Positions 24,366 through 62,147 are shown, counted from the stretch's first letter. The stretch is DNA of 64,000 nt from Leptonemataceae bacterium (GCA_965227295.1 OZ245742.1:2848001-2912000); one strand, 5' to 3'. The notes: a model not told the origin generated them from the sequence alone. Translations and numbers: made by a program.

Positions 24366-24962
24366 TCAGGGTGGTCGTGTGAGGCTGCCCTGTAGTTGTT
24401 TTCGGTCCTGTATATATGCCCATCTCAGGTTGCCCGGCAATGCCTTCCATTGACATGGTTGCAATTTGAGTCTGCGTTCGTAGCGATTCTGAAATACATA
24501 TATGCGTTCTGTATATTGTATGTAAGAAGGGTAGTTCGCATCATATGCCTCCAGCGAACTTGTCGGAACTCCGACAAATCGTTCCGCACCCCCTGCGGCT
24601 TCCAATCGAAGCAACCAGGTAAAGAGAAAGCAACGAGATACACCGAGAAAGGCCGCGATCTGGCCGAGTTCGATCCAGATTTCATTTTCGATACGGAACG
24701 CAACTCGAACAGGTTGAAGGCCGGGTGACTGATAGCGGCGCTTTACGGATCCGAACTGCGGGATGCCGTAACTCAAACAAGTCGCCCTGTATTTGCGCAC
24801 CAGAACCCGGATGTATTTGGACATGCTGTAGTTCTTTTCTTCCAGAATCCGCAGCAGATCCCTGTGAAGTTCTGCCGGAACAAGGACCGTACACGGAGAG
24901 TTCGGCCTGCCTTTAGTGGCACGCGCGAAAGTAAGATTGCTCTGAAAGCGAAGTGGATTCAT
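24366..24962 (-). CDS. DUF1564-family protein (Leptospira-type, ribbon-helix-helix-like)
   Basis: YQxPG..FRI..W.EL..AA.LGVSRCFLF..LLRLE pattern. AT-richer than its neighbours. RBS GAGAGG before ATG 24962. Confidence 0.75.
   Translation of the reverse strand: MNPLRFQSNLTFARATKGRPNSPCTVLVPAELHRDLLRILEEKNYSMSKYIRVLVRKYRATCLSYGIPQFGSVKRRYQSPGLQPVRVAFRIENEIWIELGQIAAFLGVSRCFLFTWLLRLEAAGGAERFVGVPTSSLEAYDANYPSYIQYTERIYVFQNRYERRLKLQPCQWKALPGNLRWAYIQDRKQLQGSLTRPP
24561..24576. repeat. 16-bp palindromic repeat copy TGTCGGAACTCCGACA, inside the DUF1564 gene
   Basis: Perfect 7-bp arms around AC, extended by a T/A flank. Confidence 0.85.
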
Positions 24963-25040
24963 GAACGGGCCTCTCTGTTGAGAGGTATTCCCGGATGCGA
25001 ATCGTGCCGCACAAAATGCTCGCGGATCCAAAAAATAGCG

Positions 25041-25056
25041 TGTAGGAACTCCGACT
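25041..25056. repeat. 16-bp palindromic repeat copy TGTAGGAACTCCGACT, between the NUDIX stop and DUF1564
   Basis: Matches the consensus TGTMGGA(AC/GT)TCYKACA at 15/16. Confidence 0.8.
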
Positions 25057-25457
25057 CAGAGTTCCTGAGGCAACCCCTCAATCATCCTGACTAATTCGGC
25101 GTTCTTGATTTTTCGCGCCGCTTTCTCAAGAGAAAACCAGCGCCGTTTGCGTTCATCTTTTTCGAGCCAATCATCGAAAACCTCGGTGACGCGCAGCAGA
25201 AAGACGTCGACTTGCCGATCGTGGCCGTACTTCGAATAGCGGTACGAACCCACGCAGCGATCCAGCAGCTCTCCGCGCACGCCGGCTTCCTCGTCTGCTT
25301 CGCGGGCCGCACTTTCGGCCGGCGAGAGGTACGGTTCGACATGACCTTTCGGAACGATCCAGCGACCGTCGGTTCGAGAAGTAATTAACAAAATCTGAAG
25401 TCCGCCGTCTTTCTCGCGAAACGGAATAACGGCGGACTGTCGGATTGGTTCATGCAT
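25056..25457 (-). CDS. NUDIX hydrolase (DIPP/Ap6A-like)
   Basis: Nudix box PKGHVEPYLSPAESAAREADEEAG; LLITSR. Confidence 0.92.
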   Translation of the reverse strand: MHEPIRQSAVIPFREKDGGLQILLITSRTDGRWIVPKGHVEPYLSPAESAAREADEEAGVRGELLDRCVGSYRYSKYGHDRQVDVFLLRVTEVFDDWLEKDERKRRWFSLEKAARKIKNAELVRMIEGLPQEL

Positions 25458-25458
25458 G

Positions 25459-27414
25459 TTACTCTGCGAGGATCGTGAATGATACGCGCCGGTTTTGCCG
25501 CCGGCCTTCGGCAGTGTCGTTCGTGGCGACAGGTTTATCCGGACCGAAGCCGCGAACCTTCAGCCGCCCCGCTTTCACCCCGCGTTGCACCAGGTAATCA
25601 CGCACCGACGACGCCCGGTCCTCGCTCAGTTTGATGTTGCGTGCCCGATTGCCCGTACTATCAGTATGGCCCTGGATTTCAATACGGAGCCCGGGCGTTT
25701 TCTTCAGCAACTCCGCGAACTGGTTCAATTCCGCGGCGGAGTCCGCGGTCAACTCCGCACTGCCCGTACGAAAGTTGATGTTGTTGATGATGATTTCCGC
25801 CCCGCTCCGGCGGGCCTCCTCAATCGAAGTCAGCGGGATCGTTACGCTCTCTTCGGAGTAAGCCCCGTCATTGCCGGCGGTGAGTGACCGCGAGTTTGAA
25901 AGATAGCCGTCTTTGGTTGCATAATAAACGTAACTGCGTCCACGGGGCAGGGCGATGAAAAACTCGCCGGTGTCCCAGCGGCTGGACAGTCGACCAAGCA
26001 GTTCACCACTCTCACGATCCCGCCACTCAATGTTCGCGGCCAGAGGCTCGCCGCTCTGAGCATCCACGACCTTGCCGCGTACGGCGGTCACCGAACTCTC
26101 CGGCTGCGCTCGCTTCGGTAACGGCACCACACGGTAGATATCGTCGCCGCCCAGATTGTCATCGTGTTTCCCGGAGAACCAGCCGTGATCAGCGGCCGCG
26201 GTGAGTCGAAAGCCCCAGTCGGTACCGGCGCCGTTCACGACCTTGCCGACGTTTCGCGGCGGGGACCAGCGTTGCCATGAATCATCCAGCCGCACGGTCT
26301 TGTAGATATCCATGTCACCGAAGCCGGCGTCGTAGCCGTTCGAACTAAAGTACAACGTACGTCCGTCACTGTGCAGAAACGGAGCACGCTCGGAGCCCGG
26401 AGTATTCACGAACGCCCCGAGGTTCACCGGACGACTAAACCCGCCGTCCTCCTGTACGAAGCTGATATACAGATCCGTGTTCCCCCACCAATCGGCGCCG
26501 TAAAAACGGTTCTTCGGCACCACCCCGTAAGGACTACCCGGCCGATCACTGGAAAATATTAAGGCGCGCCCATCGGAAGTTAAGAACGCATCGGATTCGA
26601 AATAGGGCGTGTTGATGGGAGCCGGCAGGGGCTGCAGCCGCGACCAGCCGGACGGGGTGGAAACCGTACGGAAAATATCGCCGTTCCCCTTGCTGCCGCG
26701 AAAGTTACCGAAGACAAACAACGCCGAACCGTCCGGAGCGATGGCGTCCGGTCCTTCGTTGTCCGGCGTATTCAGATCGTCCAGAGCCGACGTACGCCAG
26801 CGCCGGCCGTCGTTCGCCTGCCCCCCGTCCGCTTTCACCGACACCCAGATATCTTCGCCGGAGTTGCGTCCGGCCCGGTTGTTCGCCGTAAAGTACAACC
26901 GATCTCCGCTGGGTTCAGGAATGGGCAGGTACTCGGCTGTGGAACTGTTTAATGAATCGCCGGGATTCAGAATTTGCACATCGCCTTCCGGCTCCTCCAG
27001 CATGGAGATGATCTCATCGATGGCCGCCCCGCGTTCGGGAAAATCCCCGCGGTTCTCCCGCCAGATCTGCGCCGCCCGGCTGTAGTCGCCGTCTTCCATG
27101 GCGAAGCCCGCGAGCCTCTGCACGATGAGCCAGCGTGCGTAGGGTTGCGCTTCTTCGCTCGCCAGGAACTCGGCCATGGAGCGGCGATTGTTCGTGCTGT
27201 TTCCCGTGGCGTAGAACGTACGGAGCCAGCCGGCATCCAGGCCCTGGCGCCAGGCAAAGGCCGCGCTGCGTCTTCGGGCCTCGGCTTCCAGGTTGCGGCT
27301 GTTTGTCGAATCTTGAGAGCGGAGCGCGTGTTCCGGCGCCACGAAGCATAAGGCGCAGGCAGACAACATTAAGAGGGCGATGAACGGGCGACGGCGACGA
27401 CTATGAATCGGCAT
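25459..27414 (-). CDS. OmpA-family protein with PD40/WD40-like propeller
   Basis: PD40 repeats (LIFSSDRPG, LYFSSNG, DIY). OmpA C-terminus IQGHTDS..NIKLSEDRA..NRRV. Confidence 0.9.
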   Translation of the reverse strand: MPIHSRRRRPFIALLMLSACALCFVAPEHALRSQDSTNSRNLEAEARRRSAAFAWRQGLDAGWLRTFYATGNSTNNRRSMAEFLASEEAQPYARWLIVQRLAGFAMEDGDYSRAAQIWRENRGDFPERGAAIDEIISMLEEPEGDVQILNPGDSLNSSTAEYLPIPEPSGDRLYFTANNRAGRNSGEDIWVSVKADGGQANDGRRWRTSALDDLNTPDNEGPDAIAPDGSALFVFGNFRGSKGNGDIFRTVSTPSGWSRLQPLPAPINTPYFESDAFLTSDGRALIFSSDRPGSPYGVVPKNRFYGADWWGNTDLYISFVQEDGGFSRPVNLGAFVNTPGSERAPFLHSDGRTLYFSSNGYDAGFGDMDIYKTVRLDDSWQRWSPPRNVGKVVNGAGTDWGFRLTAAADHGWFSGKHDDNLGGDDIYRVVPLPKRAQPESSVTAVRGKVVDAQSGEPLAANIEWRDRESGELLGRLSSRWDTGEFFIALPRGRSYVYYATKDGYLSNSRSLTAGNDGAYSEESVTIPLTSIEEARRSGAEIIINNINFRTGSAELTADSAAELNQFAELLKKTPGLRIEIQGHTDSTGNRARNIKLSEDRASSVRDYLVQRGVKAGRLKVRGFGPDKPVATNDTAEGRRQNRRVSFTILAE

Positions 27415-27457
27415 GAATCGAAACAATTTCACGAAACGGGATCGCGCAACTACTTCT

Positions 27458-27907
27458 CTAACATTCCAGGGCTTTGAGGAGCCGCGGCGGAGGCGCCACG
27501 GCCTGCCCGGCGGCGTAGTCGTAGAACACGATGCCCGTTTTCGCCCGGGCCACCGGTCGTTCGGAGCCGTCGGCGGACAGCGCAATGACCCGGTAGAATA
27601 GTTCACAGCCCTTGCTGAAGAGTTCGCCCGGCGCCAGCGCAAAGCGCAGCACGTCGCCGAAGTGCGCTTCGGATTCGTACACGACCGCGAGATCTGCCAT
27701 GATCATACCCACGCGGCCGTCCCCATCGAGGTTTAATTCGGCAAGACCGTGAGAGGCGAAGAAGCGGGCGCGCACTTCGTGGAGCAAAGTGACGAGGGAA
27801 TCGTGGCCGAGGTGGCCGCCGAAATTCACATCACCGATACGCACGGGGAATTCCGTGGTGTAGATGAACCGGCCGGGATCCGGCAGGTTGATTTCTACGC
27901 GCGCCAT
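27458..27907 (-). CDS. Hot-dog thioesterase family protein
   Basis: PVRIGDVNFGGHLGHD..LHEVR..YESEAHFGD. Confidence 0.85.
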   Translation of the reverse strand: MARVEINLPDPGRFIYTTEFPVRIGDVNFGGHLGHDSLVTLLHEVRARFFASHGLAELNLDGDGRVGMIMADLAVVYESEAHFGDVLRFALAPGELFSKGCELFYRVIALSADGSERPVARAKTGIVFYDYAAGQAVAPPPRLLKALEC

Positions 27908-27924
27908 CGGTTCGAACGGGCGGA

Positions 27925-28023
27925 TCAGTCCTCGGGGGAGAGGAACCGCAGAACGGCGACGATGGCGCCGAAGCCGAGGGTGAAGGCCATCAGGGCCAGA
28001 AACGAAATCATGCCTGCACTCAT
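27925..28023 (-). CDS. Candidate 32-aa single-pass membrane microprotein
   Basis: MSAGMISFLALMAFTLGFGAIVAVLRFLSPED*. GC3-rich codons; ends 17 nt upstream of the thioesterase start. Confidence 0.45.
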   Translation of the reverse strand: MSAGMISFLALMAFTLGFGAIVAVLRFLSPED

Positions 28024-28280
28024 ACCAGCAGCAGGTTCCGAAGCCCGGTGCCGCGCAAGTAGAATTTCCGGTGAAATCGCGCTGACGCGAGTGGTCCCGG
28101 TACCGCCCCGGGTCGGCGCCGGCCGCGCAGTGGAGGCCCAAAGTCGACCCGAAGCCGCGGAGGTGTGCCGTGGTAACGCAAAACAATCAACTAAATATGT
28201 AGTTTTACATACGAAAGGGTATGTCGATGATGCGCCGACATTTAACCTGTTAATTTATTTAACCAGGAGGCTAAAAAATA

Positions 28281-28550
28281 ATGGTCGGCATGCAGAATGC
28301 CGGTGTAGTTTGCAGTATTATGAAGGATGCACGCCGTTACGTGGTGTTAGCGTGGCAATCCAACAAAATCTGTCCGGTACGATTTCGGCTCGGCCTGCCG
28401 TATTTCGACGCCGAGAAGCCCACGCGCTTTCGTTCGCAAAACAAAGCCCGGAACGCCATCGCCGAAGCCCGGCGCTTGCGTCAGGAACGCGGGCTGGAGT
28501 TTGCCCCGCATCTGAAAATGCACTTCAAGATCGTCGAACGCTCCGCCTGA
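28281..28550 (+). CDS. Hypothetical basic protein
   Basis: Strong RBS AGGAGG and an AT-rich upstream region; no recognisable family. Confidence 0.6.
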   Translation: MVGMQNAGVVCSIMKDARRYVVLAWQSNKICPVRFRLGLPYFDAEKPTRFRSQNKARNAIAEARRLRQERGLEFAPHLKMHFKIVERSA

Positions 28551-28595
28551 TTCCGTGCCGCCTGTCACCGGTCGGTGACAAACCCGCCGCATCGT

Positions 28596-28868
28596 TTAAC
28601 CGTAGCGCAGCAACACAATCCCCAACAACAACGACAGACCGAGGGCCGGCCAGGGCGCGCCGTCGAATGCCGTGAGCCAGAACATGTGCACGAAGGCTGC
28701 CACCAGTAACGCCACAAAGAACCGGTCCCCCGGCGTACTTTCCAGCGGCAGCAGCCCGCGACGCGGGAGCGAAGGCGAACGCCACTGCCACACGGTCATC
28801 ATGGCAAGCATGAACACGATGCAACCGAAGAACAGCGCCGTGGGTACTGTAAACGCAATCCAGTTCAT
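28596..28868 (-). CDS. DUF2160 small membrane protein (GlpU-like, glycerol ABC system)
   Basis: WIAFTVPTALFF..MTVWQ..P..RRGLLPLESTPGDRFF pattern, directly downstream of a permease. Confidence 0.8.
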   Translation of the reverse strand: MNWIAFTVPTALFFGCIVFMLAMMTVWQWRSPSLPRRGLLPLESTPGDRFFVALLVAAFVHMFWLTAFDGAPWPALGLSLLLGIVLLRYG

Positions 28869-28892
28869 AATACCTGCGAAGCGTGCGGTTGC

Positions 28893-46601: not shown

Positions 46602-47642
46602 ATGCGCGCAAGCGTTCTCACGATGTTGCTGGCGCTCGCCGTTGCCTGCGGTTCGAGCGGCGAAGTCCGCGAAGGCGGATCGTCCGCGGACACAGCGAAC
46701 GGCGCGGGTCAGAGCGGCACGGATGCCGGCGCGGCCGGCACCACGGCTGCCGCCGCCGACTACGGCGAGGCCGTCAACCGCGTGCGTTACGTTGTCGGCG
46801 AGGTCGCCATCACTGAGGTGGACATCCAGAAGATGGCGGAAATCCTCCGGCAGACCCGCGAGGGCGGTCCCAATCCGGAGCGCAAGGCCGTCGACGTCCT
46901 GGTCGAACGGGCCATCGTAAACATGGAAGCCGAGCGCGAGTCCATCATCGTCAGCGCCGAGCGCATGGAAAACGAAATCCGTCGCCGGCAGTTGGCCAGC
47001 GGGGCGGAGACCCTCGAAGACTTTCGCAAGAACGTCGAGCGTCAGACCGGTGCATCCTTTGAAGCCTGGGTGGATCAACTGCGCTTCGAAATCATCAAAC
47101 GCCAGCTGATTCAAATCAAACTGACCGTGGAGCAGCCGGGCGAAGACGAAGTCGAAAAGTTCTACCGGCAACATCGTTCGCAGGTGGGCATCGAAGTGCG
47201 TTACCGCGAAATGATCTTCGTCCCCCGTTCCGGCAGCATCGAAGAAGAGGCCCGTGTTTCCCGCCTGGCGCAGCAGGCCCACGATCGCGTACGATCCAAC
47301 CCTTCTTCTTTCGGCGACATCGCGCGCTCCATACCCGAGAACGTCTCTCCGTTGCGCGGCCTCGGCGGTTTGCAGGATTACATTCCCATCCAGTCCGTGG
47401 CCGAGCGCGATGTCACCCTCGCCGGCGTGTTATTCAACGCATCTCCGGGCATGACGCCGCGTCCTTTTCGCATCAGCGGGAACCGTTACATGGTTGTGCG
47501 CGTGGAAGGCAAACGCCCGGTGCCCCTGTCCCGGGTGCGCGATCAAATTCGCCAGCGCCTGTACTTCGATAAAGAGAACGAAGCCTTCGAGAAATGGATG
47601 GCGAAGCGGCGCAAAGAAATCGCCATCGTCACGCCGGAATAA
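46602..47642 (+). CDS. SurA-like peptidyl-prolyl isomerase lipoprotein (Leptospira type)
   Basis: Lipobox AVAC, VNRVRYVVGEVAITE SurA N-domain, parvulin-like C-terminal part; immediately upstream of spiro-SPASM. Confidence 0.8.
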   Translation: MRASVLTMLLALAVACGSSGEVREGGSSADTANGAGQSGTDAGAAGTTAAAADYGEAVNRVRYVVGEVAITEVDIQKMAEILRQTREGGPNPERKAVDVLVERAIVNMEAERESIIVSAERMENEIRRRQLASGAETLEDFRKNVERQTGASFEAWVDQLRFEIIKRQLIQIKLTVEQPGEDEVEKFYRQHRSQVGIEVRYREMIFVPRSGSIEEEARVSRLAQQAHDRVRSNPSSFGDIARSIPENVSPLRGLGGLQDYIPIQSVAERDVTLAGVLFNASPGMTPRPFRISGNRYMVVRVEGKRPVPLSRVRDQIRQRLYFDKENEAFEKWMAKRRKEIAIVTPE

Positions 47643-47644
47643 CG

Positions 47645-49129
47645 GTGTCCACATCCATCGAGACAAAGATCATTGCCGCCCTGGTGTTTCGCGAGGCCGG
47701 GAGTCCGGAACCGCCGCAGCATCTTCTCGGCGAAGCGCGGCGTCGCCTGCAGGCGCTCTATCCGGACGTTCCCGTGCACGTCGCACATCAGGGACGGCTC
47801 ATCGATGCGCTGCGCTCGGCGCTTGCGGCCGCGGAAACAACGTCTTCGCAAAATGAGCAGGATAGTGTCGCCGTTTTCTACGACTGGTATCCGCTGCTCG
47901 ATGCCGAACTCAGCCGGGAAGCCGCCGACGAACACGGCCGTTACCTGGCTCACTTTACGTACGGCGAAAACATTCCCCGCGGCCTCATCCCCGATTTCGC
48001 TTCGGCGGAGTTCATCGCCTCGTTGCCGGACGAAGTGCCCGACGACCTGCGAACGTTCGTCTTTCGCAAGATCGATCAGTACGACGTCGAACTCTTTTAC
48101 CGCACGCCGGATCTGCGACAGTATCGCCTGGACGTTTCGTGCAGCAGCCCGCGTTCGCAGCAACTTGCCGCGAGCATTCTGAAACGTGCACCGGAGTTGA
48201 ACTTTGCCGGCCTCGCGGAATTCCTGCGCCGGGAACCGGAGGTGTTGCGCCCGTATCCCTCGTACTTCGAAATCGAAGCATGTGCGGTCTCCGGGGTGCG
48301 GCCCGGGTATTTGCCGCAACCGTTGCAACCACGTGATGCCGTGTTGGACGACGCCCTCATTCAGAAGCTGCGCGAGGATATTCAGAGCAACGGATTGTCC
48401 GGTGACGTCACCGTATCTTTTGCCGGTCCGGGCGACGTCCTCTGGCATCCGCGCTGGCCGGAACTGATCGAGCACTTTACGAAACTCGACGCCGTGCGGC
48501 GGGTCTTCGTCGAAACCTACGGAGTGCTGAGCGATGAGAACGCGCTGTCCGTCGTGGAGCAACTCGCGAAGCTGGAGCAGGCTCACAAAGTTGCGATGAT
48601 CGTACGTTTGTCCACTCTGCGCGGCGATCGTTACGCGGAACTCTACGGCAGCAATCGCCTGGCCGACGTCGAAAGGTTTCTTGCGGCGTTGCAGTCGGCT
48701 CTGTCCGGCGGCCCGGCGACGTTTTCGGCGTACGTGGAAATGCTGCGCCTCAAAGACAGTGACGATGAGGTCGGCGCATTCATGGATCGCTTCGAGGCGG
48801 ACGGATCGCGGGTGCAGCCGCTGCTGGGAAAATACAACAACTACGCCGGGCGCCTACCGGAGCGCCGCGCGGCGGACCTCACGCCCCTGGGGCGGGATTT
48901 CTGCTGGCATCTGGCGCGGGATCTGTACGTAACCGCAGAAGGCCGGGTGCCTCTCTGCAAACAAGACGTGTTTGCCGAACGCGAGACGGCCCTGGATCTC
49001 CGCGAGTACGACGTCGCCGGCATCCTTGCAAAAACGGCCGAACATCACGCGGCTTCGATTCGCGGCGAACATGAACGGATCCCCATGCCGTGCCTGCAAT
49101 GCGATGAATGGTACACGTTCAACGGCTAA
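47645..49129 (+). CDS. Spiro-SPASM protein
   Basis: YLAHFTYGENIPRG, DLRQYRLD, degenerate radical-SAM core, SPASM cysteines CWHLARD..LCKQD..CLQCDEWY. Confidence 0.85.
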   Translation: MSTSIETKIIAALVFREAGSPEPPQHLLGEARRRLQALYPDVPVHVAHQGRLIDALRSALAAAETTSSQNEQDSVAVFYDWYPLLDAELSREAADEHGRYLAHFTYGENIPRGLIPDFASAEFIASLPDEVPDDLRTFVFRKIDQYDVELFYRTPDLRQYRLDVSCSSPRSQQLAASILKRAPELNFAGLAEFLRREPEVLRPYPSYFEIEACAVSGVRPGYLPQPLQPRDAVLDDALIQKLREDIQSNGLSGDVTVSFAGPGDVLWHPRWPELIEHFTKLDAVRRVFVETYGVLSDENALSVVEQLAKLEQAHKVAMIVRLSTLRGDRYAELYGSNRLADVERFLAALQSALSGGPATFSAYVEMLRLKDSDDEVGAFMDRFEADGSRVQPLLGKYNNYAGRLPERRAADLTPLGRDFCWHLARDLYVTAEGRVPLCKQDVFAERETALDLREYDVAGILAKTAEHHAASIRGEHERIPMPCLQCDEWYTFNG

Positions 49130-49153: not shown

Positions 49154-50083
49154 TCACATTAAAAACAAGGACCGTTCTTCCGGCGTGGGCAACCGGCAGC
49201 TTTCTTTTTTTCCGAACCAACGATAGCGATTCGCGGCGATGAGATCATACAGACCGTTGCGCCAGGAGCGCGGCAGGAGCAATGCAATCCGGGCGGACTT
49301 CCAGAGTCCGCCGAGACGCAGACCGATGGCGAGTACGGCGTCGGAGCGTTCGTGCAGACCGTGTTCGTCCAGATACAGCATGGTATTCATATCTTCCACG
49401 AGATCCGCGGCGAGTGTACGTTGCGCGAACTCGCCCTGGATCGGAGCATAACGAAAGATGCGGCCTCGATCCTCGACAATGATCCAGTCCACGGCCGTGT
49501 TGCAGAGGCCGCAGAAACCGTCGAAGAAAACCACCGGTGCCTGCCCGGGATGTGTCGCAGGGCGTCCGGGCCCCGGCCATCGGAACGCGAACAGGAACAA
49601 CAGCACCGCCGCCGGAATCAGCGAGGCCAGATAGGCGGCGGCGAAGAAACACAGGATGATGAGTGCAGCCGTTCCGGCCCAGGCGAGCGCGATGAGCCAT
49701 CGCTCGTGCCGCAGGGACCAGGCCGGGTTCGTCTGCCCGGCGAGGCGCCAGGGTTCGCCGCCGGGAGCCAGGACAATCAGGATCAACGGAAACGTACTGA
49801 GCCCGGCGGCCGCGGTTTCCGGCCAGGCGTTCAGGGCGCCGCCGCCTTGCAATGTAGGAGTTCCTACAAAGAGCATCGCGGCAATGACGGCCAGGCTGCT
49901 CAGCCGTCGGACGACTCCAACCATTACGAGTGCCCCTGCAAGTGCGCCCCCGCCGGCGGCCAGCAGGGCGCCGGGATCCGGTGCCGGGACACACATCGCG
50001 GCTCCCCAGGCCACGGCGAACAGGCCGGCCAAAATCCGATACATCGCGAATTGGTGCGGGCTGAGCTGCATTCGAGGCGACAT
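49154..50083 (-). CDS. Membrane protein with C-terminal DCC1/DUF393 thiol-disulfide domain
   Basis: Multi-TM N-terminus; VFFDGFCGLCN..YDLIAANRYRWFG..C. Confidence 0.85.
   Translation of the reverse strand: MSPRMQLSPHQFAMYRILAGLFAVAWGAAMCVPAPDPGALLAAGGGALAGALVMVGVVRRLSSLAVIAAMLFVGTPTLQGGGALNAWPETAAAGLSTFPLILIVLAPGGEPWRLAGQTNPAWSLRHERWLIALAWAGTAALIILCFFAAAYLASLIPAAVLLFLFAFRWPGPGRPATHPGQAPVVFFDGFCGLCNTAVDWIIVEDRGRIFRYAPIQGEFAQRTLAADLVEDMNTMLYLDEHGLHERSDAVLAIGLRLGGLWKSARIALLLPRSWRNGLYDLIAANRYRWFGKKESCRLPTPEERSLFLM
49853..49868. repeat. 16-bp palindromic repeat copy TGTAGGAGTTCCTACA, in CDS
   Basis: Perfect arms; encodes FVGTPT on the minus strand. Confidence 0.85.
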
Positions 50084-50084: not shown

Positions 50085-50100
50085 TGTAGGAACTCCTACA
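50085..50100. repeat. 16-bp palindromic repeat copy TGTAGGAACTCCTACA, abutting the DUF393 start codon
   Basis: Perfect arms with T/A extension. Confidence 0.85.
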
Positions 50101-50977: not shown

Positions 50978-51870
50978 AGATCGCGATCATCACCGGCGCC
51001 GGCAGGATCGGCGGCATCCAGTACGGCAGCGGTCACTTCGAACGCATGTCGGAACTCCGACGGCGACTGGAGCGACGCGGGGATTCCGCGGAGATCGTTC
51101 CACCGGGTGCGGCCCCGATCCCGGCCGATCTCTACGTCGTCGACGCGCGGGACCTGGATCCGGGGCCCTTCCGCGCCACCGGCCGTCCCGTCCTGGCCCT
51201 CGACAATCGCCACGAATCTCGCCCGCATCACGATCCGCATGCCGACGGAGTCATCTTCTACGATACGATCCCGCATCCCGACGCCGATCTCAGGGCAACT
51301 CTGCGCCGTGCTCTGATCGGGGAAGATGTCATCGAATGTCGGAGTTCCTACAAGGGCGGACCGGGCCCCCGGGACGATCCGGGCCGGGGGCGACCGCGGA
51401 TCTTTGCATACAGCGGCGCATTCCCCGATGTAGCGGGTCTGGACGATTTCCTGGCAGCCGCGGCGCGGCGCGGCCAGGTGGTCAAGCGCTGCGGCACGGC
51501 ACCGCCGACGGCCTCGCTACAGGCGGCCGGTGGTCATCACATCGGGCGCGAATCTCGCGCCGAATTCCTGGCCGATCTTATCTCCGCGGACTGCGTCATC
51601 ACTTACTTCGGAATGACGCTTCTCGAAGCCTGGTATCTGGAAACCGTGCCCGTACTCTACGAAACCACGAGCCCGGTGCACGAAGAACTCGGAGACTACC
51701 TTGCCGGCGCCGCGGGGATACAGCGCCTGCGGTGGAGCGACACATCTCCGGTCGAAAACGAACACCGGCTGGAGCGCCTGGCTGCCGACGATTGGCCGTT
51801 GCCTCCCGGTGGACCAGGCGGCAACGGCTATGACCTTTTAATAGAAGAAATCGACCGACTGAGCCTTTGA
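50974..51870 (+). CDS. SpsG/PseG-like GT-B fold protein
   Basis: TTG start overlapping the upstream stop; YGSGHFERM, ITYFGMTLLEA. Confidence 0.7.
   Translation: MKIAIITGAGRIGGIQYGSGHFERMSELRRRLERRGDSAEIVPPGAAPIPADLYVVDARDLDPGPFRATGRPVLALDNRHESRPHHDPHADGVIFYDTIPHPDADLRATLRRALIGEDVIECRSSYKGGPGPRDDPGRGRPRIFAYSGAFPDVAGLDDFLAAAARRGQVVKRCGTAPPTASLQAAGGHHIGRESRAEFLADLISADCVITYFGMTLLEAWYLETVPVLYETTSPVHEELGDYLAGAAGIQRLRWSDTSPVENEHRLERLAADDWPLPPGGPGGNGYDLLIEEIDRLSL
51047..51062. repeat. 16-bp palindromic repeat copy TGTCGGAACTCCGACG, in CDS
   Basis: 15/16 match to the consensus; encodes MSELR. Confidence 0.7.
51337..51352. repeat. 16-bp palindromic repeat copy TGTCGGAGTTCCTACA, in CDS
   Basis: Encodes CRSSY. 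Confidence 0.8.
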
Positions 51871-55502: not shown

Positions 55503-55503
55503 G

Positions 55504-56139: not shown

Positions 56140-56170
56140 CTTGCTAATCTTCAGTCAATCGAACTCAGTC

Positions 56171-57496: not shown

Positions 57497-57583
57497 TGGC
57501 ATCCGCGATTTGTACCCCCGTCAATCGAAATTGTGGAAAATTTGTGCACGGTGCTTTGCCCGGCGGCGAGGGGAGTTCGTGCA

Positions 57584-58957
57584 CTAGCGAAAATCGCGGC
57601 TGACCGTGGCCTGGTACACCAGCGCCGGTCCGGCCGCAGCACGGAGCCGGACGTTCCAGCCGCGATCGGCGAGATCGCCGGGCAGATAGAGGACGGTGCC
57701 GCGAGCGATCCGTCCCCCGTGTTCCCGACTCCCGTCCGTGGCGCGGACGATTTCCAGGTCGTAGCCGCCCGGGCTCAGGCCGAGCAGGATGGACGGGCGA
57801 TCGCTGTGGTCGAGCTCCAGCGGCGGGGCAATGCCGTCAATGCTCGCGCTCCGCAGGGCGAACCGGTGGACTTCGAATTCACGGACCGGAACTTTGTAGG
57901 AACTCTTACACGAGGTGTCTCTGGCGGCCGGGGAGGCCTTCGGCTCATGGACCTCGGGCGGGCCGTAGCGATAGTGCAGCATGTCCACGAGTGTGTCGAC
58001 ATCCATGAACTTCGGGGTGAGGCCGGCGCGGACCACGTTGTCCGAGGCTGCCATGCATTCGAGGATGCGCCCGCCCAGGTACGCGTGGGGTTCGTTGGGA
58101 CCCAGGAAGAGGGCCTGGTCCGGTTTTAGTTCCAGGTAGTTCAGGAAGTAGGCCGAAAACAGGCCGCGGTCGCTTTCGCCGTAGATTTCGGCGAGCTGCA
58201 GAAAGAGCGCGTCGGCCGGATCCAGGTTGGTGGCCGGATCTCCGTCTTCGCCCCAGGCGGTGAGTCGAAGCTTCTGGGCGCGCACGGCCTCGGTGATTTC
58301 CCCCGGACTGGAACGCATGAGACGGCCGTAGGCGTCCTTGATCCAGGCGCGCTGCTGTACCTCATTCCCCGCCGGTTCCGGAAGTGGGGAGGAATCTTCG
58401 CCTTCGCTACAGGGCTCGTACAGAAAGCCCGCGTCCGAACACAGGGCGGCCAGTTCGGGGATACGCTGGAGATAGCCGGCGATTTCCTGAGGGCTGCGAA
58501 AGCCGATCAGAGCGGTCATGCCGGCCAGACAGACGGCCAGTTCCGGCTTGTGATTGGCGTCGGGATAGTGCTCTGGATCCCGGGCGTGGAGCTGCGGCGC
58601 GAGTTCCAGGTCCGGATGAGCCTGGATGGATAGCGGTTCCGCGGCGTCCAGAATCTTGAATAAGAACGGAAGCTGCCGATGACCGGCCTGCGCCAGGTCC
58701 GGCCCCAGGAAGTGCCGCGGGTCTTCGGCGATGGCCTTGTCCAGGCTCCGTCCGTCAAAGGTTGCGCCCGGCGCACGCAGGACGGACGGCGCCTTCGGAT
58801 GCGCACCCATCCAGAGCTCGGCGGCGGGCCGGTCGTCGGCGGGAGTCGTGCCGCGCAATTCGTGGATGAATGCGGCCTTCCCGCGGGAGCCCCATGCATA
58901 GTCCATGACGCTGCAGTCCAGTTCGTAGAATACGGGATGTTCGCTCGGCTCTGGCAC
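57584..58957 (-). CDS. manA: Mannose-6-phosphate isomerase, type I
   Basis: YAWGS, AELWMGAHP, LPFLFKIL, LSIQAHP, YPDANHKPE, HAYLGG..ECMAASDNVVRAGLTPK. Confidence 0.95.
   Translation of the reverse strand: MPEPSEHPVFYELDCSVMDYAWGSRGKAAFIHELRGTTPADDRPAAELWMGAHPKAPSVLRAPGATFDGRSLDKAIAEDPRHFLGPDLAQAGHRQLPFLFKILDAAEPLSIQAHPDLELAPQLHARDPEHYPDANHKPELAVCLAGMTALIGFRSPQEIAGYLQRIPELAALCSDAGFLYEPCSEGEDSSPLPEPAGNEVQQRAWIKDAYGRLMRSSPGEITEAVRAQKLRLTAWGEDGDPATNLDPADALFLQLAEIYGESDRGLFSAYFLNYLELKPDQALFLGPNEPHAYLGGRILECMAASDNVVRAGLTPKFMDVDTLVDMLHYRYGPPEVHEPKASPAARDTSCKSSYKVPVREFEVHRFALRSASIDGIAPPLELDHSDRPSILLGLSPGGYDLEIVRATDGSREHGGRIARGTVLYLPGDLADRGWNVRLRAAAGPALVYQATVSRDFR
57895..57910. repeat. 16-bp palindromic repeat copy TGTAGGAACTCTTACA, in manA
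   Basis: Encodes CKSSY on the minus strand. Confidence 0.8.
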
Positions 58958-58961
58958 TTGC

Positions 58962-59216
58962 TTAGATTCGTTCCGTGTCGCTCACGTCCGGTCGTGGTTG
59001 CTCAATGGCCGGCGGCTCCGTGGCCGGCGGTGCATCCCGGATGATGCTGCGAAACGTAAACAACCCGGGCGCAAACAGCCGCAGGGCGAACAGAAAGAGT
59101 GCCACGTAAAGGACAAGTCTCAGGATCGACTCCCGGTTCAACGGCAGTCCCGATCCCGGTATCAATGCGCCCAGGTCTTCGCGGACCAGGTCGGCGAGAC
59201 GGCGTAGTACGGGCAT
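58962..59216 (-). CDS. Hypothetical small membrane protein
   Basis: One TM segment; operon position upstream of manA. Confidence 0.5.
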   Translation of the reverse strand: MPVLRRLADLVREDLGALIPGSGLPLNRESILRLVLYVALFLFALRLFAPGLFTFRSIIRDAPPATEPPAIEQPRPDVSDTERI

Positions 59217-59258
59217 GAGGCAGTCTTTCCCACACCATACTTTGCGAAAACAAAAATC

Positions 59259-59753
59259 TTACTCCGTCGCGGCCCGATGTAGTTGATGGGTGGAGTAGTG
59301 GTGCGGTTCGTAGATGCGCAGAAAGAGCGTATCGTCCCGTTGCCAGAGCTTGCATCGGTAGGCGGCACTGGCGGAGGGGACGATGATTCGGCCGAGCACG
59401 TACTCGCCGCCTTCGGCGCGCAGCCCGCTGATCATTTTCATTCCCAGGAGCGGTTGGTTCGCGGCGGGAGCGGGACAGCCCGTGCACCTGGCCGACATGG
59501 AATCGTTTGTACCGGGCAGGGCGATGATACGCGCGCCCAGGAAGGTCCGGGCGCCGGCCGGGCCATTGTCGGCGACCTGGTTGTGAAATTCGAGAACGAC
59601 GTCGCCGGGAAAGAGGCGATCATCGGCGGGGAGGACGTAGCGCCCTTCCGGCGGAGATGAGGGAGCCGCATCTGCGTGGGCTGCCACGAAGGCCGTTGCC
59701 GCGACAAGCAGCAGGACAATGATTCGCTGCTTTGAAGAACTTATCGCGTCCAC
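59259..59753 (-). CDS. DUF2147-like secreted protein (divergent)
   Basis: Signal peptide; ARCTGCP..NQPLLGMKMI..GRII.P..AYRCKL. Confidence 0.7.
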   Translation of the reverse strand: MDAISSSKQRIIVLLLVAATAFVAAHADAAPSSPPEGRYVLPADDRLFPGDVVLEFHNQVADNGPAGARTFLGARIIALPGTNDSMSARCTGCPAPAANQPLLGMKMISGLRAEGGEYVLGRIIVPSASAAYRCKLWQRDDTLFLRIYEPHHYSTHQLHRAATE

Positions 59754-60202
59754 TCCTGAACTTCTCCCATGGCGGGAATACTCAGGAAGCTGAAGACACG
59801 CAGCTTCTTGCCGTCGTCGGCGAGTTCGATGTAGCAGTTGTAGGTCTTACCTTCGTCGGCCCGGTAGATCTTACCACCGCTCCACTTCTCACCGTCGAAG
59901 CGGAGACCGTGGATGATTTCCAGTTCGGTGAGTTTGACGCCGCGTTCCCGGGGATTGGGATTGTTCACGTCGGTGCGGGCCGTGCCGTCGGCGTTGTTCG
60001 GTTCCGCCATCCAACTGATGCGACCGCAGTACTTATCGCCGCACTGGACGAAGGTGACCTTGCTTTTTCCGTCGGGGCGCGTCCATTCGTGCAGGATGGC
60101 GTCGGCGCCCGGTTGGGCGAGCAGAGCCCCGGTGGTGAGCAGGGCGAAGAGAGCGGCGCACAGAACCGTGCGCCGCCGTAAGTTGTTAAGTTTTCTTTGC
60201 AT
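59741..60202 (-). CDS. DUF2147 secreted protein
   Basis: YCGRISW..DVNNPNP..WSGGKIY..GKTYNC. Confidence 0.85.
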   Translation of the reverse strand: MQRKLNNLRRRTVLCAALFALLTTGALLAQPGADAILHEWTRPDGKSKVTFVQCGDKYCGRISWMAEPNNADGTARTDVNNPNPRERGVKLTELEIIHGLRFDGEKWSGGKIYRADEGKTYNCYIELADDGKKLRVFSFLSIPAMGEVQEWTR

Positions 60203-60206
60203 GATG

Positions 60207-60695
60207 TTAGCGAGTCCAGTGGACGGTCTTGCCGAGGTACGAGACGCCGACATAACCGCGGACCTTTAGTTTTTTCGGGTTTTCCAGCTCCATGTAGCAG
60301 CTGTAGGTCTTGCCGTCCTTTGGATTGTAGATATTACCGCCGGACCACTTGTCGCCGTCCCAGGTGAAGCCCCACACCAGAAACATGCCCTGGATCGGAC
60401 GGTCACGCTTGGAGGCGTCGGGATTGTTGCGGTCGTGTTTGGGCTGACCCGCTTCGGCATCACCGGCAGGATAGTTCGGCTCTTTGAGCCAGGTGATTTT
60501 TCCGCAGAGCTTGTCCTTGGAGCCGTCGCCGTCGGTATCTTTGCCGCAGCGAAACAGGGTGACGCGAGAATCGCCGTCCTGGGTCGTCCAGGTTCCGGCG
60601 TAGTCGTCGGCCGAGGCTGCATGCAGGATGCCGGCGAAGGCGATGCCCGCAATGAGCGCGGCCAGCGCGAGCATTCGGTTGCGTACGTAGTTCAT
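60207..60695 (-). CDS. DUF2147 secreted protein
   Basis: LCGKITW..DRNNPD..WSGGNIYNPKDGKTYSC..LKVRGYVG..WTR. Confidence 0.9.
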   Translation of the reverse strand: MNYVRNRMLALAALIAGIAFAGILHAASADDYAGTWTTQDGDSRVTLFRCGKDTDGDGSKDKLCGKITWLKEPNYPAGDAEAGQPKHDRNNPDASKRDRPIQGMFLVWGFTWDGDKWSGGNIYNPKDGKTYSCYMELENPKKLKVRGYVGVSYLGKTVHWTR

Positions 60696-60809
60696 AGTTT
60701 CCCCCTTGAGGTGTGCATTTTTTTATGATGCAAGTCTTAGATACGATGCCGCGCAAGAATTGTTTGAATTTTTTCGGGAAAATCTCTCGACGGGGTTTGC
60801 TTTTGTGCG

Positions 60810-62147
60810 GTGCAAATTGGTGTGCGCGGTGATTCTTTGGATGTAAGGCGTGCCGGAGATGTTCTGCTCGCGCCGGGATTGGTGGGCCGGGATGACTGGT
60901 CGGAGCTCGGGCCGTTTGCTCTCGCCATTTCCGGCGGCCGGGATTCCATGCTGTTGCTGCACGCCTTCGTGGATCTCCGGGAACGCGGCCTGTTCGGTCG
61001 TGATTTCGTGGTCTTTCATCTGGACCATCGTTTGCGCGAAGACTCGGGCGCGGACCTGGATTTCGTCGCCGCTGAATCCCATCGTCTTGACGTTTCCTTC
61101 TATTGTACGTCGCGCGATGTGCGTGTGTTCGCGCGACGTTCTCGTATCGGCTCTCTGGAAGCGGCCGGCAGAACTCTGCGGTATCGTTCGCTGCGCCGGC
61201 TGTGTGAGCGGCGGTTCGGCGGAACGGGCATCGTGGTCACGGCCCATCATGCGGATGATTACCTGGAAAGTGTGCTCGTACACTGGATTCGCGGCGGAGG
61301 GCGTGCCGCCCTGGGGACGTTGCCCGTGATGGATCGCGGTCCGGAAGGGCTGACGCTGCTCCGACCGCTGCTCGCGCTTTCGCGCGCGGATGTTTCGGAG
61401 ATTGTGGCGCGGTTGGGCATTGCGTTTCGCGACGATCCTTCGAACGAGTCACCGGAGTTTTTGCGGAATCGTCTGCGGTCCGGCGTGATTCCGGCGCTGC
61501 GCCAGGAGGGCCTCGATGCCGTAAAGCTCTGGCGGAACTTTCACGATGCGCCCGGCGGGTCGGCCGGATTTGTAGGAACTCCTACAAAAGGGGGCGGCGC
61601 CGGCCCGGTGGAGGTTCTCTGTCTGGACCGCCGCCTTCTTGTAGGAACTCTTACGGAGCTGAAGGCCGTGCTGGACGTTGCGCTGCGACGCCTGGGATTG
61701 CCGCCGTCGGAGCGGGCGTTGCTCGCCGAACTCCGTTCCCAGCAGGCTCACGATGCCGCGGCGTTCCGGCAGGTTTTCGAATCTAAGTCGCTGCGGATCT
61801 GGTCGGATCGCCGCGGGCCGGTGTGGTTGTTTCGCCAGGACGCCGACGTGTTCCGCGCGCCGCGCTTCGAACGGGCCGGGAAAATCCTGCGCATCCACTG
61901 GAACGGCCGAACCCGGGAGTACGCTGCGACGGCGGGGCAGCGCCCGGGCGGTTTTGAGCCGGGTATGCGCGCGCCGCTGCCGGGAGGCGGGCACTTGCTC
62001 GTGAAAAAGATTTTTCAAGATGCCGGTGTGCCGGGCCCGCTGCGCCCGCTCATTCCCCTGCTCATCGACGAGGATTCGGGCCTGGTCTCGTGCATTTGCC
62101 TGTCGTTCTGGGAACACGGCAAGGATCGGCATTTCTTTTCTCCGTGA
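60810..62147 (+). CDS. tilS: tRNA(Ile)-lysidine synthase
   Basis: PP-loop AISGGRDS, HLDHRLR, EAAGRTLRY, TAHHADD, RPLL, DPSN..RNRLR. Confidence 0.92.
   Translation: MQIGVRGDSLDVRRAGDVLLAPGLVGRDDWSELGPFALAISGGRDSMLLLHAFVDLRERGLFGRDFVVFHLDHRLREDSGADLDFVAAESHRLDVSFYCTSRDVRVFARRSRIGSLEAAGRTLRYRSLRRLCERRFGGTGIVVTAHHADDYLESVLVHWIRGGGRAALGTLPVMDRGPEGLTLLRPLLALSRADVSEIVARLGIAFRDDPSNESPEFLRNRLRSGVIPALRQEGLDAVKLWRNFHDAPGGSAGFVGTPTKGGGAGPVEVLCLDRRLLVGTLTELKAVLDVALRRLGLPPSERALLAELRSQQAHDAAAFRQVFESKSLRIWSDRRGPVWLFRQDADVFRAPRFERAGKILRIHWNGRTREYAATAGQRPGGFEPGMRAPLPGGGHLLVKKIFQDAGVPGPLRPLIPLLIDEDSGLVSCICLSFWEHGKDRHFFSP
61571..61586. repeat. 16-bp palindromic repeat copy TGTAGGAACTCCTACA, in tilS
   Basis: Extends to the 20-bp TTTGTAGGAACTCCTACAAA; encodes FVGTPT in a Gly-rich linker. 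Confidence 0.85.
61640..61655. repeat. 16-bp palindromic repeat copy TGTAGGAACTCTTACG, in tilS
   Basis: 69 bp downstream of the previous copy; encodes LVGTLT. Confidence 0.75.

Follow-up and report, generated by a model that had tools for sequence, protein, structure and literature searches.

Palindromic sites in the window

The window, a stretch of 64,000 nucleotides from a Leptonemataceae bacterium, carries nine copies of a short palindrome in or next to genes for a DUF1564 protein, a NUDIX protein, a DCC1-like/DUF393 protein, a type-I phosphomannose isomerase, TilS and a 298-aa product (Table 1). A search allowing up to three mismatches from TGTAGGAACTCCTACA returned 14 rows representing nine distinct sites, where shuffled sequences were expected to give 0.11, and these were the nine copies listed in the preliminary description. 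With the strict 7-2-7 consensus proposed there, six were found (0.00 expected); the copies at 25041 (ending in ACT), 51047 and 61640 (both ending in ACG) depart from it in the last base only. The pair spacings of 69, 232, 290 and 480 bp and the grouping of seven copies inside 11.8 kb were correct as first given. Seven of the nine lie in open reading frames, also in agreement with the earlier placement, the others being at the NUDIX stop codon and at the DCC1-like start. The 298-aa ORF, provisionally labelled 'SpsG-like', had no Pfam or NCBIfam match. On the mRNA strand, the 50085 site places AGGAG at the Shine-Dalgarno position.

Table 1. The DUF1564 gene and the nine motif copies in the window.
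Feature	Position	Strand	Sequence	Context
DUF1564 gene	24366..24962	-		198 aa from ATG at 24962; open frame extends to 25031
Site	24561..24576	+	TGTCGGAACTCCGACA	Inside minus-strand DUF1564 coding sequence, codons V-G-V-P-T
Site	25041..25056	+	TGTAGGAACTCCGACT	5' of DUF1564 start; 1-nt overlap with NUDIX stop codon
Perfect site	49853..49868	-	TGTAGGAACTCCTACA	Inside DCC1-like/DUF393 gene
Perfect site	50085..50100	+		Ends one base before DCC1-like gene ATG
Weaker site, 3 mismatches	51047..51062	+	TGTCGGAACTCCGACG	Inside 298-aa ORF
Site	51337..51352	-	TGTAGGAACTCCGACA (minus-strand reading)	Inside the 298-aa ORF that also holds the 51047 site
Site	57895..57910	+	TGTAGGAACTCTTACA	In minus-strand type-I phosphomannose isomerase gene
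Perfect site	61571..61586	+		tilS hypervariable linker, peptide FVGTPTK
Site	61640..61655	+	TGTAGGAACTCTTACG	tilS, 69 bp past the 61571 site, peptide LLVGTLTE

Abundance, form and origin of the motif

The genome under study (5.94 Mb, 59.8% G+C, 93.6% complete) represents an uncultured Leptospirales lineage of another family than L. interrogans, Leptospira itself being excluded. The abundance of the motif in this genome is not random. The core TGTAGGAACTC occurs 70 times (36 plus, 34 minus), compared with 1.9 copies expected from base composition and 0.85, 1.17 and 1.76 under Markov models of orders 1, 3 and 5. Within the 4,468 called genes 44 copies were found, whereas synonymous-codon shuffles (n=40) averaged 1.2 and never exceeded 5. 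Together with the occupation of several reading frames and the use of GGA GTT CCT ACA for the DUF1564 peptide GVPT (joint probability 4.3e-5 under the codon usage of this genome), this result supports a constraint acting on the DNA and not on the protein, as had been suggested for the window.

The full form of the motif is wwT-TGTAGGAACTC-YKACR-ww, approximately 20 bp. When the centre is set as AC, the left arm is near-invariant and the right arm looser, so that the motif is asymmetric and the symmetric palindrome described at first does not hold. All 16 positions are conserved, including the AC/GT centre and its neighbouring bases, and conservation continues into about three A/T-rich bases per side and no further, so that the unit is a short module, as opposed to a longer repeat. 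Amongst the approximately 85 sites (about one per 50-70 kb), 58 (~68%) are located in coding sequence, and the 27 outside it, in 14% of the genome, amount to an enrichment of about 2.2-fold. The 105 genes at or adjoining sites share no common functional theme, which would be odd for a classical regulon. Two adjoining sites carry one rare variant in common.

Comparison of tilS, leuS and ileS with their orthologues placed the sites in variable stretches of unchanged length, with the orthologues lacking the site. The absence of added length indicates that the sites in these three genes are products of substitution, and excludes there the insertions that the preliminary description had considered. 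In general, the sites of this genome probably arose in place, through substitutions of which many would be synonymous, in intergenic DNA and in tolerant parts of genes. Such in-place creation would lead to site turnover between species, and no positional conservation of sites was found at the orthologous loci of two same-genus genomes (G001 and G002).

The DUF1564 family and motif copies at its genes

The ORF listed first in Table 1 matches DUF1564 (PF07600) with an E value of 9.2e-20 and a score of 71.4 bits, the gathering cut-off being 25, and the genome has six DUF1564 genes. The AlphaFold2 model of the protein (pLDDT 93.4) has two beta-alpha-alpha units in one chain, as expected of a tandem ribbon-helix-helix protein. 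The first comprises strand 22-29 and helices 30-43 and 47-57, the second strand 84-91 and helices 93-106 and 110-122, and an extra C-terminal beta-hairpin and helix follow. With Foldseek probabilities of 0.80-0.99, chains E, F and G of the F-plasmid relaxosome, which we take to be TraY, were the best structural matches. VIA aligned the model with 9f0x_E at Z 8.9 (97 residues, 3.0 A), and structural comparison also returned a permuted single-chain Arc (Z 6.8) and AvtR (Z 6.6), then many ribbon-helix-helix repressors and antitoxins. From this model, the N-terminal 105 residues of these small DUF1564 proteins are predicted to bind DNA as a tandem ribbon-helix-helix unit within one chain.

In all six DUF1564 genes of the genome under study, the motif is spelled by rare codons at V[GR]VPT. 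A further site lies immediately 5' of two of these genes, with paralogue c carrying one at the same relative position as the 25041 site. GVPT is a majority residue pattern across the family, so part of the in-gene match could reflect protein conservation. In genome G040, which has 51 DUF1564 matches, the core GGAGTTCC/GCAGTTCC is found at the equivalent codons in 10/10 fetched loci and the variant TGTGGGAACTCCAC upstream at at least eight of these ten, the aligned loci being ~90% alike. Genome G036 has 24 DUF1564 genes, of which 13 exceed the control 90th percentile for an internal site and only seven for an upstream one. Palindromes of the 7-2-7 type, specific to individual paralogues, occupy the same codons in G036, and the last base of the Pro codon, a synonymous position, co-varies with the partner arm.

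In the genome under study, a post hoc test of proximity placed 21 of 76 sites within 50 kb of the six DUF1564 genes, where ~7.5 would be expected (P 0.0006 when gene positions were randomised and 0.013 when they were rotated). In G036, five of 23 sites were as near against 8.2 expected, i.e., no closer than chance.

Occurrence in Leptospirales

Amongst the 41 Leptospirales genomes surveyed, 20 were enriched in the motif (at least eight copies of the 11-mer; reversed-pattern control 0-9), and DUF1564 is encoded in all 20. This enrichment and its co-occurrence with DUF1564 are new observations, which extend the conservation of the motif across the order and bear out the lineage specificity claimed earlier. 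The 11 genomes lacking a DUF1564 match contain 0-3 copies, and include four genus g24 genomes of ~4 Mb and 99% completeness. Ten further genomes encode DUF1564 and have fewer than eight copies of the 11-mer; near the DUF1564 genes of G011, no substitute dispersed motif was found. Copy numbers of motif and gene are uncoupled (e.g., 68 sites and three genes in G026, 18 sites and 32 genes in G034), and an association amongst related genomes represents few independent events.

A similar motif, attributed to Leptospira in the preliminary description, is indeed present in L. interrogans, where TGT[AG]G[GT]A[AG][TC]T[CA]C[CT]ACA[AT][AT][TA][TAC] was reported upstream of transcription starts (Zhukova et al. 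2017, PMC5243855). The sections of that report dealing with the motif mention it in passing within an intergenic repeat and give it no function. They describe a distance to transcription starts that is not fixed, found none of the known binding sites to match, and regard a role as a binding site as improbable.

Genomes of the Leptospira-like kind have the motif on the flanks of a promoter-bearing repeat, as part of repeats of ~180 bp, and inside MITE-like repeats whose ends differ from it; there it behaves as a cargo module. It lies within MITE-type units in G036 and G029, and the left palindrome of the G036 repeat is upstream of the unit's own promoter. Additionally, the motif occurs in tandem arrays with periods of 17, 21, 47-50 and 67 bp, the array in G007 not adjoining partition genes.

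Interpretation of the motif

Our best reading is that the motif is a Leptospirales-only, asymmetric palindromic module of ~20 bp, putatively protein-binding, and the same element as in L. interrogans. We think that the link with DUF1564 is the key to it, and tentatively propose the motif as a candidate binding site of this family, its most likely reader, at chances we would put a little under even. One DUF1564 molecule may occupy each arm, in which case two molecules would cover the palindrome. A copy in every DUF1564 gene of the genome under study, with a further copy upstream of some, would be expected under self-regulation. By way of conjecture, the sites could act as transcriptional operators or roadblocks, paired sites would permit looping, and the whole might amount to a half-selfish 'binder plus site' system. 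The sites do pair up, with 15 neighbour gaps not exceeding 800 bp where 1.0 would be expected; a looping or recombination role, as suggested earlier, is possible.

We consider it unlikely, though less so than the readings below, that the motif represents a selfish repeat of REP or MITE type, with the palindrome as the recognition or processing module of a mobile repeat system copied by a trans-acting enzyme. In that case DUF1564 would be no more than an accessory factor, and the copies in the genome under study would have no host function. The ~180-bp and MITE-like repeats and the tandem arrays described above are in line with this, as are the 51 DUF1564 matches of G040, with ten aligned loci ~90% alike, the local clumping of sites, the rare variant common to two neighbours and the orthologues without conserved sites. 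Leptospirales are reported to be richer in conserved MITEs than any other order (PMC11602168), a PF07600 protein carries the UniProt label 'mobile element protein' (PMC12457778), and the motif starts with GTAG and finishes with CTAC, similar in this to GTAG-tagged REPs (PMC3733652). However, a PF01797 search for a Y1/RAYT transposase matched six of 14 control genomes and nothing in the genome under study, the GTAG is paired within the stem and so leaves no unpaired tag, and both the short conserved flanks and the mainly coding sites, created by substitution in tilS, leuS and ileS, argue against copied units.

A hairpin in RNA or single-stranded DNA (6-bp stem, 4-nt loop) that acts on translation, replication or the stability of mRNA, with no need for a reader of double-stranded DNA, is improbable. 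Of the 53 coding sites, 38 carry the conserved half on the antisense strand (p 0.002), frequent right-arm changes (C to T at 12, A to G at 14 and 16) retain G-U pairing on one strand only, the arm covariation of the G036 paralogues extends to the synonymous Pro position, and at some sites AGGAG lies 7-9 nt ahead of an ATG. The strand favoured by wobble is nevertheless the antisense one in most genes, and transitions are the commonest mutations anyway. An A-G mismatch interrupts the stem in 14 of 70 sites, neither a T-run nor an Rfam match was found, and the left palindrome of the G036 repeat precedes the promoter of its unit.

Little probability is likewise left to an operator of another transcription factor, such as a CRP/FNR-family regulator. 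The outline TGT-N10-ACA would suit one, and that of TGTA-N8-TACA presumably resembles NtcA/CRP-type sites; one site is at the 3' end of a Crp-family gene, others adjoin TetR, XRE and two sigma-54 activator genes, and the enrichment outside coding sequence points the same way. Against this, conservation of all 16 positions, centre included, is unlike CRP-type sites, most sites lie deep in housekeeping genes, none of these regulator genes bears the motif systematically as all six DUF1564 genes do, and the L. interrogans motif, in the sections cited above, has no set distance to transcription starts (PMC5243855).

The preliminary description had proposed a chromosome-organisation, looping or recombination signal. 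With the origin at ~1.18 Mb and the terminus, as inferred from skew, at ~4.09 Mb, the 85 sites show no replication-strand bias (46 to 39) and no arrangement or symmetry about either, and clump instead at 2.87-2.91, 3.10-3.23, 4.35-4.67 and 5.19-5.59 Mb. A Noc/SlmA/MatP/ParB kind of organisation or segregation signal, in which bound intragenic palindromes mark chromosome territory, would accord with so many mainly intragenic palindromes and with just two sites at 3.24-4.35 Mb, a post hoc choice of stretch that includes the terminus, but is improbable given the pattern just described, equally poor stretches elsewhere (e.g., nine sites at 1.35-2.75 Mb), positions that differ between same-genus genomes and the G007 array lying away from partition genes.

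Comparison with known systems

The L. interrogans motif and that of the genome under study have the same 16-bp palindrome and the same A/T-rich tail, whereas the copies described here stand alone, in a 60% G+C genome, and are about two-thirds intragenic; the sections of the L. interrogans study on the motif do not connect it with DUF1564 (PMC5243855). REP/BIME elements with their RAYT transposases (GTAG-tagged REPs; PMC3733652) are similarly short dispersed palindromes, often paired and lineage-specific, some REPs being intragenic, and the repeat lies within or on the flanks of the associated protein-coding gene. REPs are 20-40 bp long, compared with 16 bp here, and the present motif has GTAG/CTAC inside its arms and is mostly intragenic without insertion. 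The REP partner is an HUH enzyme, in contrast to the predicted ribbon-helix-helix binder that is the candidate here. Membership of the REP/RAYT class was rejected on the absence of PF01797, the 16-bp length, the paired tag (an unpaired GTAG or CGTC tag being required) and the 58/85 coding sites; that of the MITE class, for the genome under study only, on conservation ending ~3 bp out, as opposed to units of 50-500 bp with terminal inverted repeats and a conserved interior.

Correia elements of Neisseria are lineage-specific short repeats bearing promoters or protein sites, and DNA uptake sequences and the cyanobacterial HIP1 are lineage-specific and occur in coding sequence, in several frames, without indels. 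The present motif is longer and 10-30 times rarer than the latter two, and a DNA uptake sequence was rejected at roughly one site per 50-70 kb, about one per kb being required, along with a strand-specific, non-palindromic core and a competent host. A CRP/FNR-type operator, which calls for set promoter positions ahead of a coherent regulon and a degenerate centre, was discarded on the 105 genes without a theme, the conserved AC/GT centre and the intragenic majority.

Noc NBS, SlmA SBS, MatP matS and ParB parS also number in the tens, as palindromic, often intragenic sites with a dedicated protein. The motif differs from them in having no ori/ter pattern or positional conservation and a candidate binder of another fold, and assignment to these types was rejected on the strand ratio and on the G001 and G002 loci without a site.

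Ribbon-helix-helix operators (Arc, Mnt, MetJ, omega, CopG) and the tandem proteins TraY, VirC2 and AvtR offer a further comparison, the predicted DUF1564 fold resembling single-chain Arc, AvtR and the relaxosome chains. Short inverted half-sites 7-9 bp apart would suit adjacent ribbon-helix-helix units, and sites in or near DUF1564's own genes would be compatible with autoregulation. Such proteins have one or few operators, whereas ~85-230 sites per genome, mostly in unrelated genes, are found here, together with up to 51 DUF1564 paralogues per genome and a C-terminal beta-hairpin and helix additional to the TraY/VirC2/AvtR class.

Abundance of the palindrome and chance expectation

All nine copies of the dispersed 16-bp 7-2-7 palindrome listed in the preliminary description were recovered by scanning the window for the perfect palindrome TGTAGGAACTCCTACA with up to 3 mismatches (14 rows, representing 9 sites), for which shuffled sequences predict 0.11. 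The strict consensus given there fits six of these sites (0.00 expected), and the other three deviate from it at the last base only. The genome under study (G000) is one contig of 5,938,550 bp with 59.8% G+C, of which the window covers positions 2,848,001-2,912,000. Genome-wide, the 11-mer TGTAGGAACTC was found in 36 + 34 = 70 copies, against predictions of 1.9 from base composition and of 0.85, 1.17 and 1.76 from Markov models of orders 1, 3 and 5, respectively.

When synonymous codons were shuffled within each of the 4,468 called genes (40 shuffles), a mean of 1.2 and a maximum of 5 in-gene copies were obtained, compared with 44 observed. Additionally, the spelling of GVPT as GGA GTT CCT ACA has a probability of 4.3e-5 under G000 codon usage. 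The motif is thus not explained by codon or amino-acid composition, and the earlier suggestion that selection acts on the DNA, not on the protein, is borne out.

Anatomy of the motif

With the sites oriented by their non-palindromic centre (AC), the left arm plus centre, TGTAGGAACTC, is nearly invariant, in contrast to a more variable right arm (C/T, T/G, A, C, A/G). In the G000 sites approximately three A/T-rich bases flank each side and no conservation is seen further out, so that the unit is a module of ~20-22 bp and not the end of a longer repeat. The unconserved flanks also excluded IS or MITE ends in G000. An ECF-type promoter with a -35 element of the GGAAC kind was rejected as well, as there is no conserved -10 element and the downstream sequence is unconserved. 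The motif would be classed with the short palindromes that are dispersed through genomes as protein sites or repeats.

Sites in three genes made by substitution

Three site-bearing genes, tilS, leuS and ileS, were compared with their orthologues. Both tilS sites lie within a hypervariable linker and are absent from the orthologous loci of five relatives, including both same-genus genomes. The leuS site occupies a hypervariable loop that is shorter in G000 than in the relatives. The ileS site spells G-K-S-S-Y-K directly before KMSKS, where relatives have N-Q-T-S-Y-K or D-K-S-S-Y-K with different codons, and it was created by a few changes, most of which are synonymous or conservative. Insertion, which the preliminary description had proposed to test in manA and tilS orthologues, fails in tilS and in the other two genes: no length has been added, and the sites, all in variable stretches, are the product of substitutions. 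These comparisons indicate that sites were written in place where the protein tolerates change. Site positions were not conserved between the same-genus genomes examined, which are distant relatives (50-87% amino-acid identity by gene in the query regions).

Occurrence across Leptospirales

Leptospirales include the agents of leptospirosis, and their promoters and regulators are poorly understood, with many protein families of unknown function. A CarA comparison places the closest named records to G000 among uncultured Leptospirales MAGs (77% and 61% identity). In a survey of 41 genomes of the order, spanning 25 genera, copies of the 11-mer numbered 8 or more in 20 genomes, with a maximum of 229, compared with 0-9 for a reversed-pattern control. 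These motif-rich genomes include all ten of genus g22, which is Leptospira-typical in size and G+C.

The similar Leptospira motif mentioned in the preliminary description is indeed in print for L. interrogans. In the part of Zhukova et al. 2017 (PMC5243855) available to us, MEME analysis of the -80..+1 regions of transcription starts yielded TGT[AG]G[GT]A[AG][TC]T[CA]C[CT]ACA[AT][AT][TA][TAC], described as lacking a fixed position or a match to known sites and as lying mostly within an intergenic repeated element; the authors' conclusion was that it might not be a DNA-binding site. Searches for further literature found none on the motif, whose strings matched only unrelated primers, and none on the function of DUF1564 (PF07600), the family considered below.

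The motif within larger repeats of Leptospira-like genomes

Larger repeats of Leptospira-like genomes are built in part from the motif. The unit in genome G036 comprises the palindrome, 10-23 bp, a sigma-70-like promoter, a G+C-rich stretch of ~80 nt and a second, looser palindrome. In G029 the motif lies inside MITE-like units with different terminal repeats, and in other genomes it builds tandem arrays, some of them at contig ends (see table), which may correspond to variable-number tandem repeats used for Leptospira typing. In seven of the ten g22 genomes, 1-7 motif-like sites lie no more than a few hundred bp from the 3' end of the match to the DCC1-like (DUF393) gene, 47-50 bp apart where there are several. 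A partition locus at the G007 array was rejected, the neighbours being ppsA and an acyltransferase.

The ~180 bp G036 unit (loci L027-L054, e.g., L053:1501 and downstream) has a strong promoter of the TTGCAA-N17-TGATAGA type, which would transcribe the conserved G+C-rich stretch (..CCACCC..GGGTGG..) ahead of the second palindrome. The unit may represent a small RNA or leader that is present in many copies and lacks annotation; a known RNA family was rejected, as eight G036 loci gave no Rfam match. Its derivation from an internally deleted DUF1564 gene was unsupported, since blastn matched another repeat copy and not the genes.

This repeat-embedded form agrees with the description of Leptospirales, in the part of PMC11602168 available to us, as the order richest in conserved MITEs, and it is among the grounds for reading the motif as a REP/MITE-like selfish repeat. 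We consider that explanation unlikely, if the strongest of the alternatives: no RAYT was found in G000, which excluded RAYT involvement there. Carriage of the motif as cargo of several repeat families is as expected of a protein-binding site.

Coordinates of individual features in the window and in loci (L) fetched from other Leptospirales genomes (G)
Feature	Location	Strand	Description
DUF1564 (PF07600) ORF	window 24366-25031	-	profile match
Spiro-SPASM radical-SAM-type ORF	window 47594-49129	+	TIGR04321, E 1.6e-102
Tandem array	G007 L218:4461-4733		16 copies of 17 bp
Tandem array	G031 L239:1068-1364		7 copies of 47 bp
Tandem array	G040 L221:4287-4379		4 copies of 21 bp
Tandem array	G040 L222:4079-4400		5 copies of 67 bp

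Distribution of sites in G000

With a threshold of at most 2 mismatches to the 16-mer or an exact 11-mer, 85 sites were obtained in G000. A crude gene caller (codon log-odds model, longest-ORF starts, 85.7% coding) placed 53 in genes, 26 between genes and 6 at gene edges; five of the 'intergenic' sites fall inside DUF1564 genes that it overlooked, which corrects the split to 58 coding (68%), 21 intergenic and 6 edge sites and leaves non-coding DNA over-represented ~2.2-fold. Sites occur in regional clumps along the chromosome and are often paired, with 15 neighbour gaps of at most 800 bp compared with 1.0 expected. With regard to the chromosome-organisation signal first proposed, replication polarity, the strand-bias check envisaged for it, was rejected (46 sites to 39, with a skew-inferred origin at ~1.18 Mb and terminus at ~4.09 Mb), and we give this explanation little credence.

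A bias does exist with respect to transcription, the conserved half being on the antisense strand in 38 of 53 coding sites (p 0.002). It would favor a possible action of the motif as an RNA or single-stranded-DNA hairpin, which we regard as improbable. No functional theme was found among the 105 genes at or beside sites, which include IleRS, LeuRS, FtsK, TGT, TrpC, ThyA and TilS, the helicases Lhr, HrpB and SNF2, phosphomannose isomerase, hydrolases and regulators of various kinds. An operator of some other regulator, a reading to which the enrichment in non-coding DNA would be congenial and this miscellany would not, is equally doubtful.

Several further observations were made at or near sites. 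A single TPR gene contains two sites separated by 94 bp (contig C1:635217 and 635311) that share a rare right-arm variant, ..CTCCTGCG; this suggests that one was copied locally from the other and that the two did not originate independently. At window 50085-50100 and at G000 positions 4397390, 4509066, 5849994, 5336810 and 1824752, the mRNA strand reads ..AGGAGTTCCTACA with ATG 0-2 nt after it; here the motif could be the downstream gene's Shine-Dalgarno sequence, occludable when bound or folded. The spiro-SPASM ORF of the window, a member of a spirochaete-restricted family, adjoins the site cluster. A separate repeat of ~250-300 bp, with ~175-190 copies in G000 as estimated from marker words, among them AAGACGCCGTTCCGG and ACTCCGAGGACCGAG (e.g., C1:1283694, 2189002 and 2726452), has no copy in the window and no Rfam match. 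The motif is not associated with the other abundant repeats of G000 (11 sites within 2 kb, 12 expected).

Association of the motif with DUF1564 genes

The best-supported reading of these data, which we advance tentatively, is that the palindrome is the predicted cognate site of DUF1564 proteins; considerably more likely is the broader claim that it is a putative protein-binding module under DNA-level selection. The motif is found in all six G000 DUF1564 genes, each time at the V-[GR]-V-P-T codons within otherwise diverged paralogue DNA, and in two of them a second site lies close upstream of the start. DUF1564 is encoded in 20 of the 20 motif-rich genomes, and the 11 genomes lacking a DUF1564 match, among them four complete ~4 Mb genomes of genus g24, have 0-3 copies. 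An excess of [GT]GGAACTCC in g24 was discarded, as it shows no flanking pattern and is explained by G-T-P codon usage.

Ten genomes have DUF1564 and fewer than 8 copies of the 11-mer. One of these, G040, has 51 DUF1564 matches. Of 10 aligned loci (~90% alike), at least 8 are preceded by the variant TGTGGGAACTCCAC, some by several copies of it; the same core also lies within the DUF1564 coding sequence, and its 9-mer occurs in 253 copies compared with 11 for a control. In G036, paralogues bear differing 7-2-7 palindromes where they share homologous N-x-G-x-P-T-F-H codons, covariation with the partner arm extends to the third, synonymous base of the Pro codon, and beta-strand residues differ between the palindrome groups, which are subfamilies as well. 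Counting against the DUF1564 reading are the good upstream site for only 7 of 24 DUF1564 genes in G036, the lack of correlation between site copy number and DUF1564 gene number, the lineages (several) that have DUF1564 without the motif, and the partial conservation of GVPT as protein.

Outside the DUF1564 genes, 21 of 76 G000 sites lie within 50 kb of them compared with ~7.5 expected, in a post hoc test with P of 0.0006 for random gene positions and 0.013 for rotation; the same test was negative in G036 (5 of 23, 8.2 expected). A bolder proposal treats DUF1564 and its palindrome together as a selfish 'binder plus site' element of a new type, one that would spread as a site and not by insertion. 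Short-patch, templated conversion of near-matches in the vicinity would start from a master copy inside every DUF1564 gene, and the site would then be overwritten into intergenic DNA and tolerant gene parts with lengths unchanged. Such conversion would explain the clustering near DUF1564 genes, the rare-variant pairs, the rapid loss and gain of sites, and the derived forms seen in Leptospira, both MITE-like and tandem; we hold it to be a long shot all the same.

The six G000 DUF1564 genes have atypical, A/T-ending codon usage (five of the six were missed by the codon-based caller), and local G+C dips to 0.55 at window 24001-26000 from ~0.61, which suggests a separate gene history.

Significance and predicted mode of binding

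What is already in print, in the part of PMC5243855 available to us, is a passing and dismissive mention of the motif in L. interrogans. New here are the conservation of the motif throughout the order, over a range of 35-60% G+C, the mostly intragenic form that it takes by substitution in the G000 lineage, the statistical case for DNA-level selection, and a specific candidate reader with a confidently predicted DNA-binding fold. A motif dismissed in one paper thereby becomes an order-wide, strongly selected DNA signal with a concrete candidate reader, from a family of up to ~50 copies per genome without assigned function. If binding is true, one result would give this large orphan family a function and would explain several Leptospira repeat classes, possibly tandem-repeat loci too. 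It would also present the rare case of a 16-bp protein site kept inside dozens of housekeeping genes at the expense of codon and amino-acid choice.

Sequence searches with DUF1564 gave 171 relatives by HMMER among 1.8 billion representative proteins, 4 matches only by a word-based homologue search, none in genome contigs with a single protein as the query, and in the PDB a sole, non-significant match to MazE7 (E 0.17). An AlphaFold2 model (76-sequence alignment; pLDDT 93.4, pTM 0.86) has beta-alpha-alpha units at residues 22-63 and 84-122 and, C-terminal to these, one helix, a beta-hairpin and a further, long helix. The best Foldseek matches of the N-terminal part were ~110-residue F-plasmid relaxosome chains, which we take to be TraY (probability 0.80-0.99, E 0.02-0.2). 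An all-against-all structural search returned the same relaxosome chain (Z 8.9 over 97 residues), single-chain Arc (Z 6.8) and AvtR (Z 6.6), with lower matches to DndE and to many ribbon-helix-helix repressors and antitoxins, the latter aligning to either half. Altogether, the model and these matches suggest that DUF1564 is a DNA binder of the single-chain tandem ribbon-helix-helix type that has an additional C-terminal domain.

The candidate roles of such a protein are those of operator binding, roadblock or looping in a partly selfish 'binder plus site' system, which would fit the self-sites in DUF1564 genes, the site pairs, the promoter-bearing repeats of Leptospira and the absence of a regulon theme. 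One tandem ribbon-helix-helix unit would read one major groove, and the built-in asymmetry of the pseudo-dimer could account for the asymmetric motif. Two DUF1564 units on arms 7-9 bp apart would resemble MetJ or omega bound to adjacent repeats.
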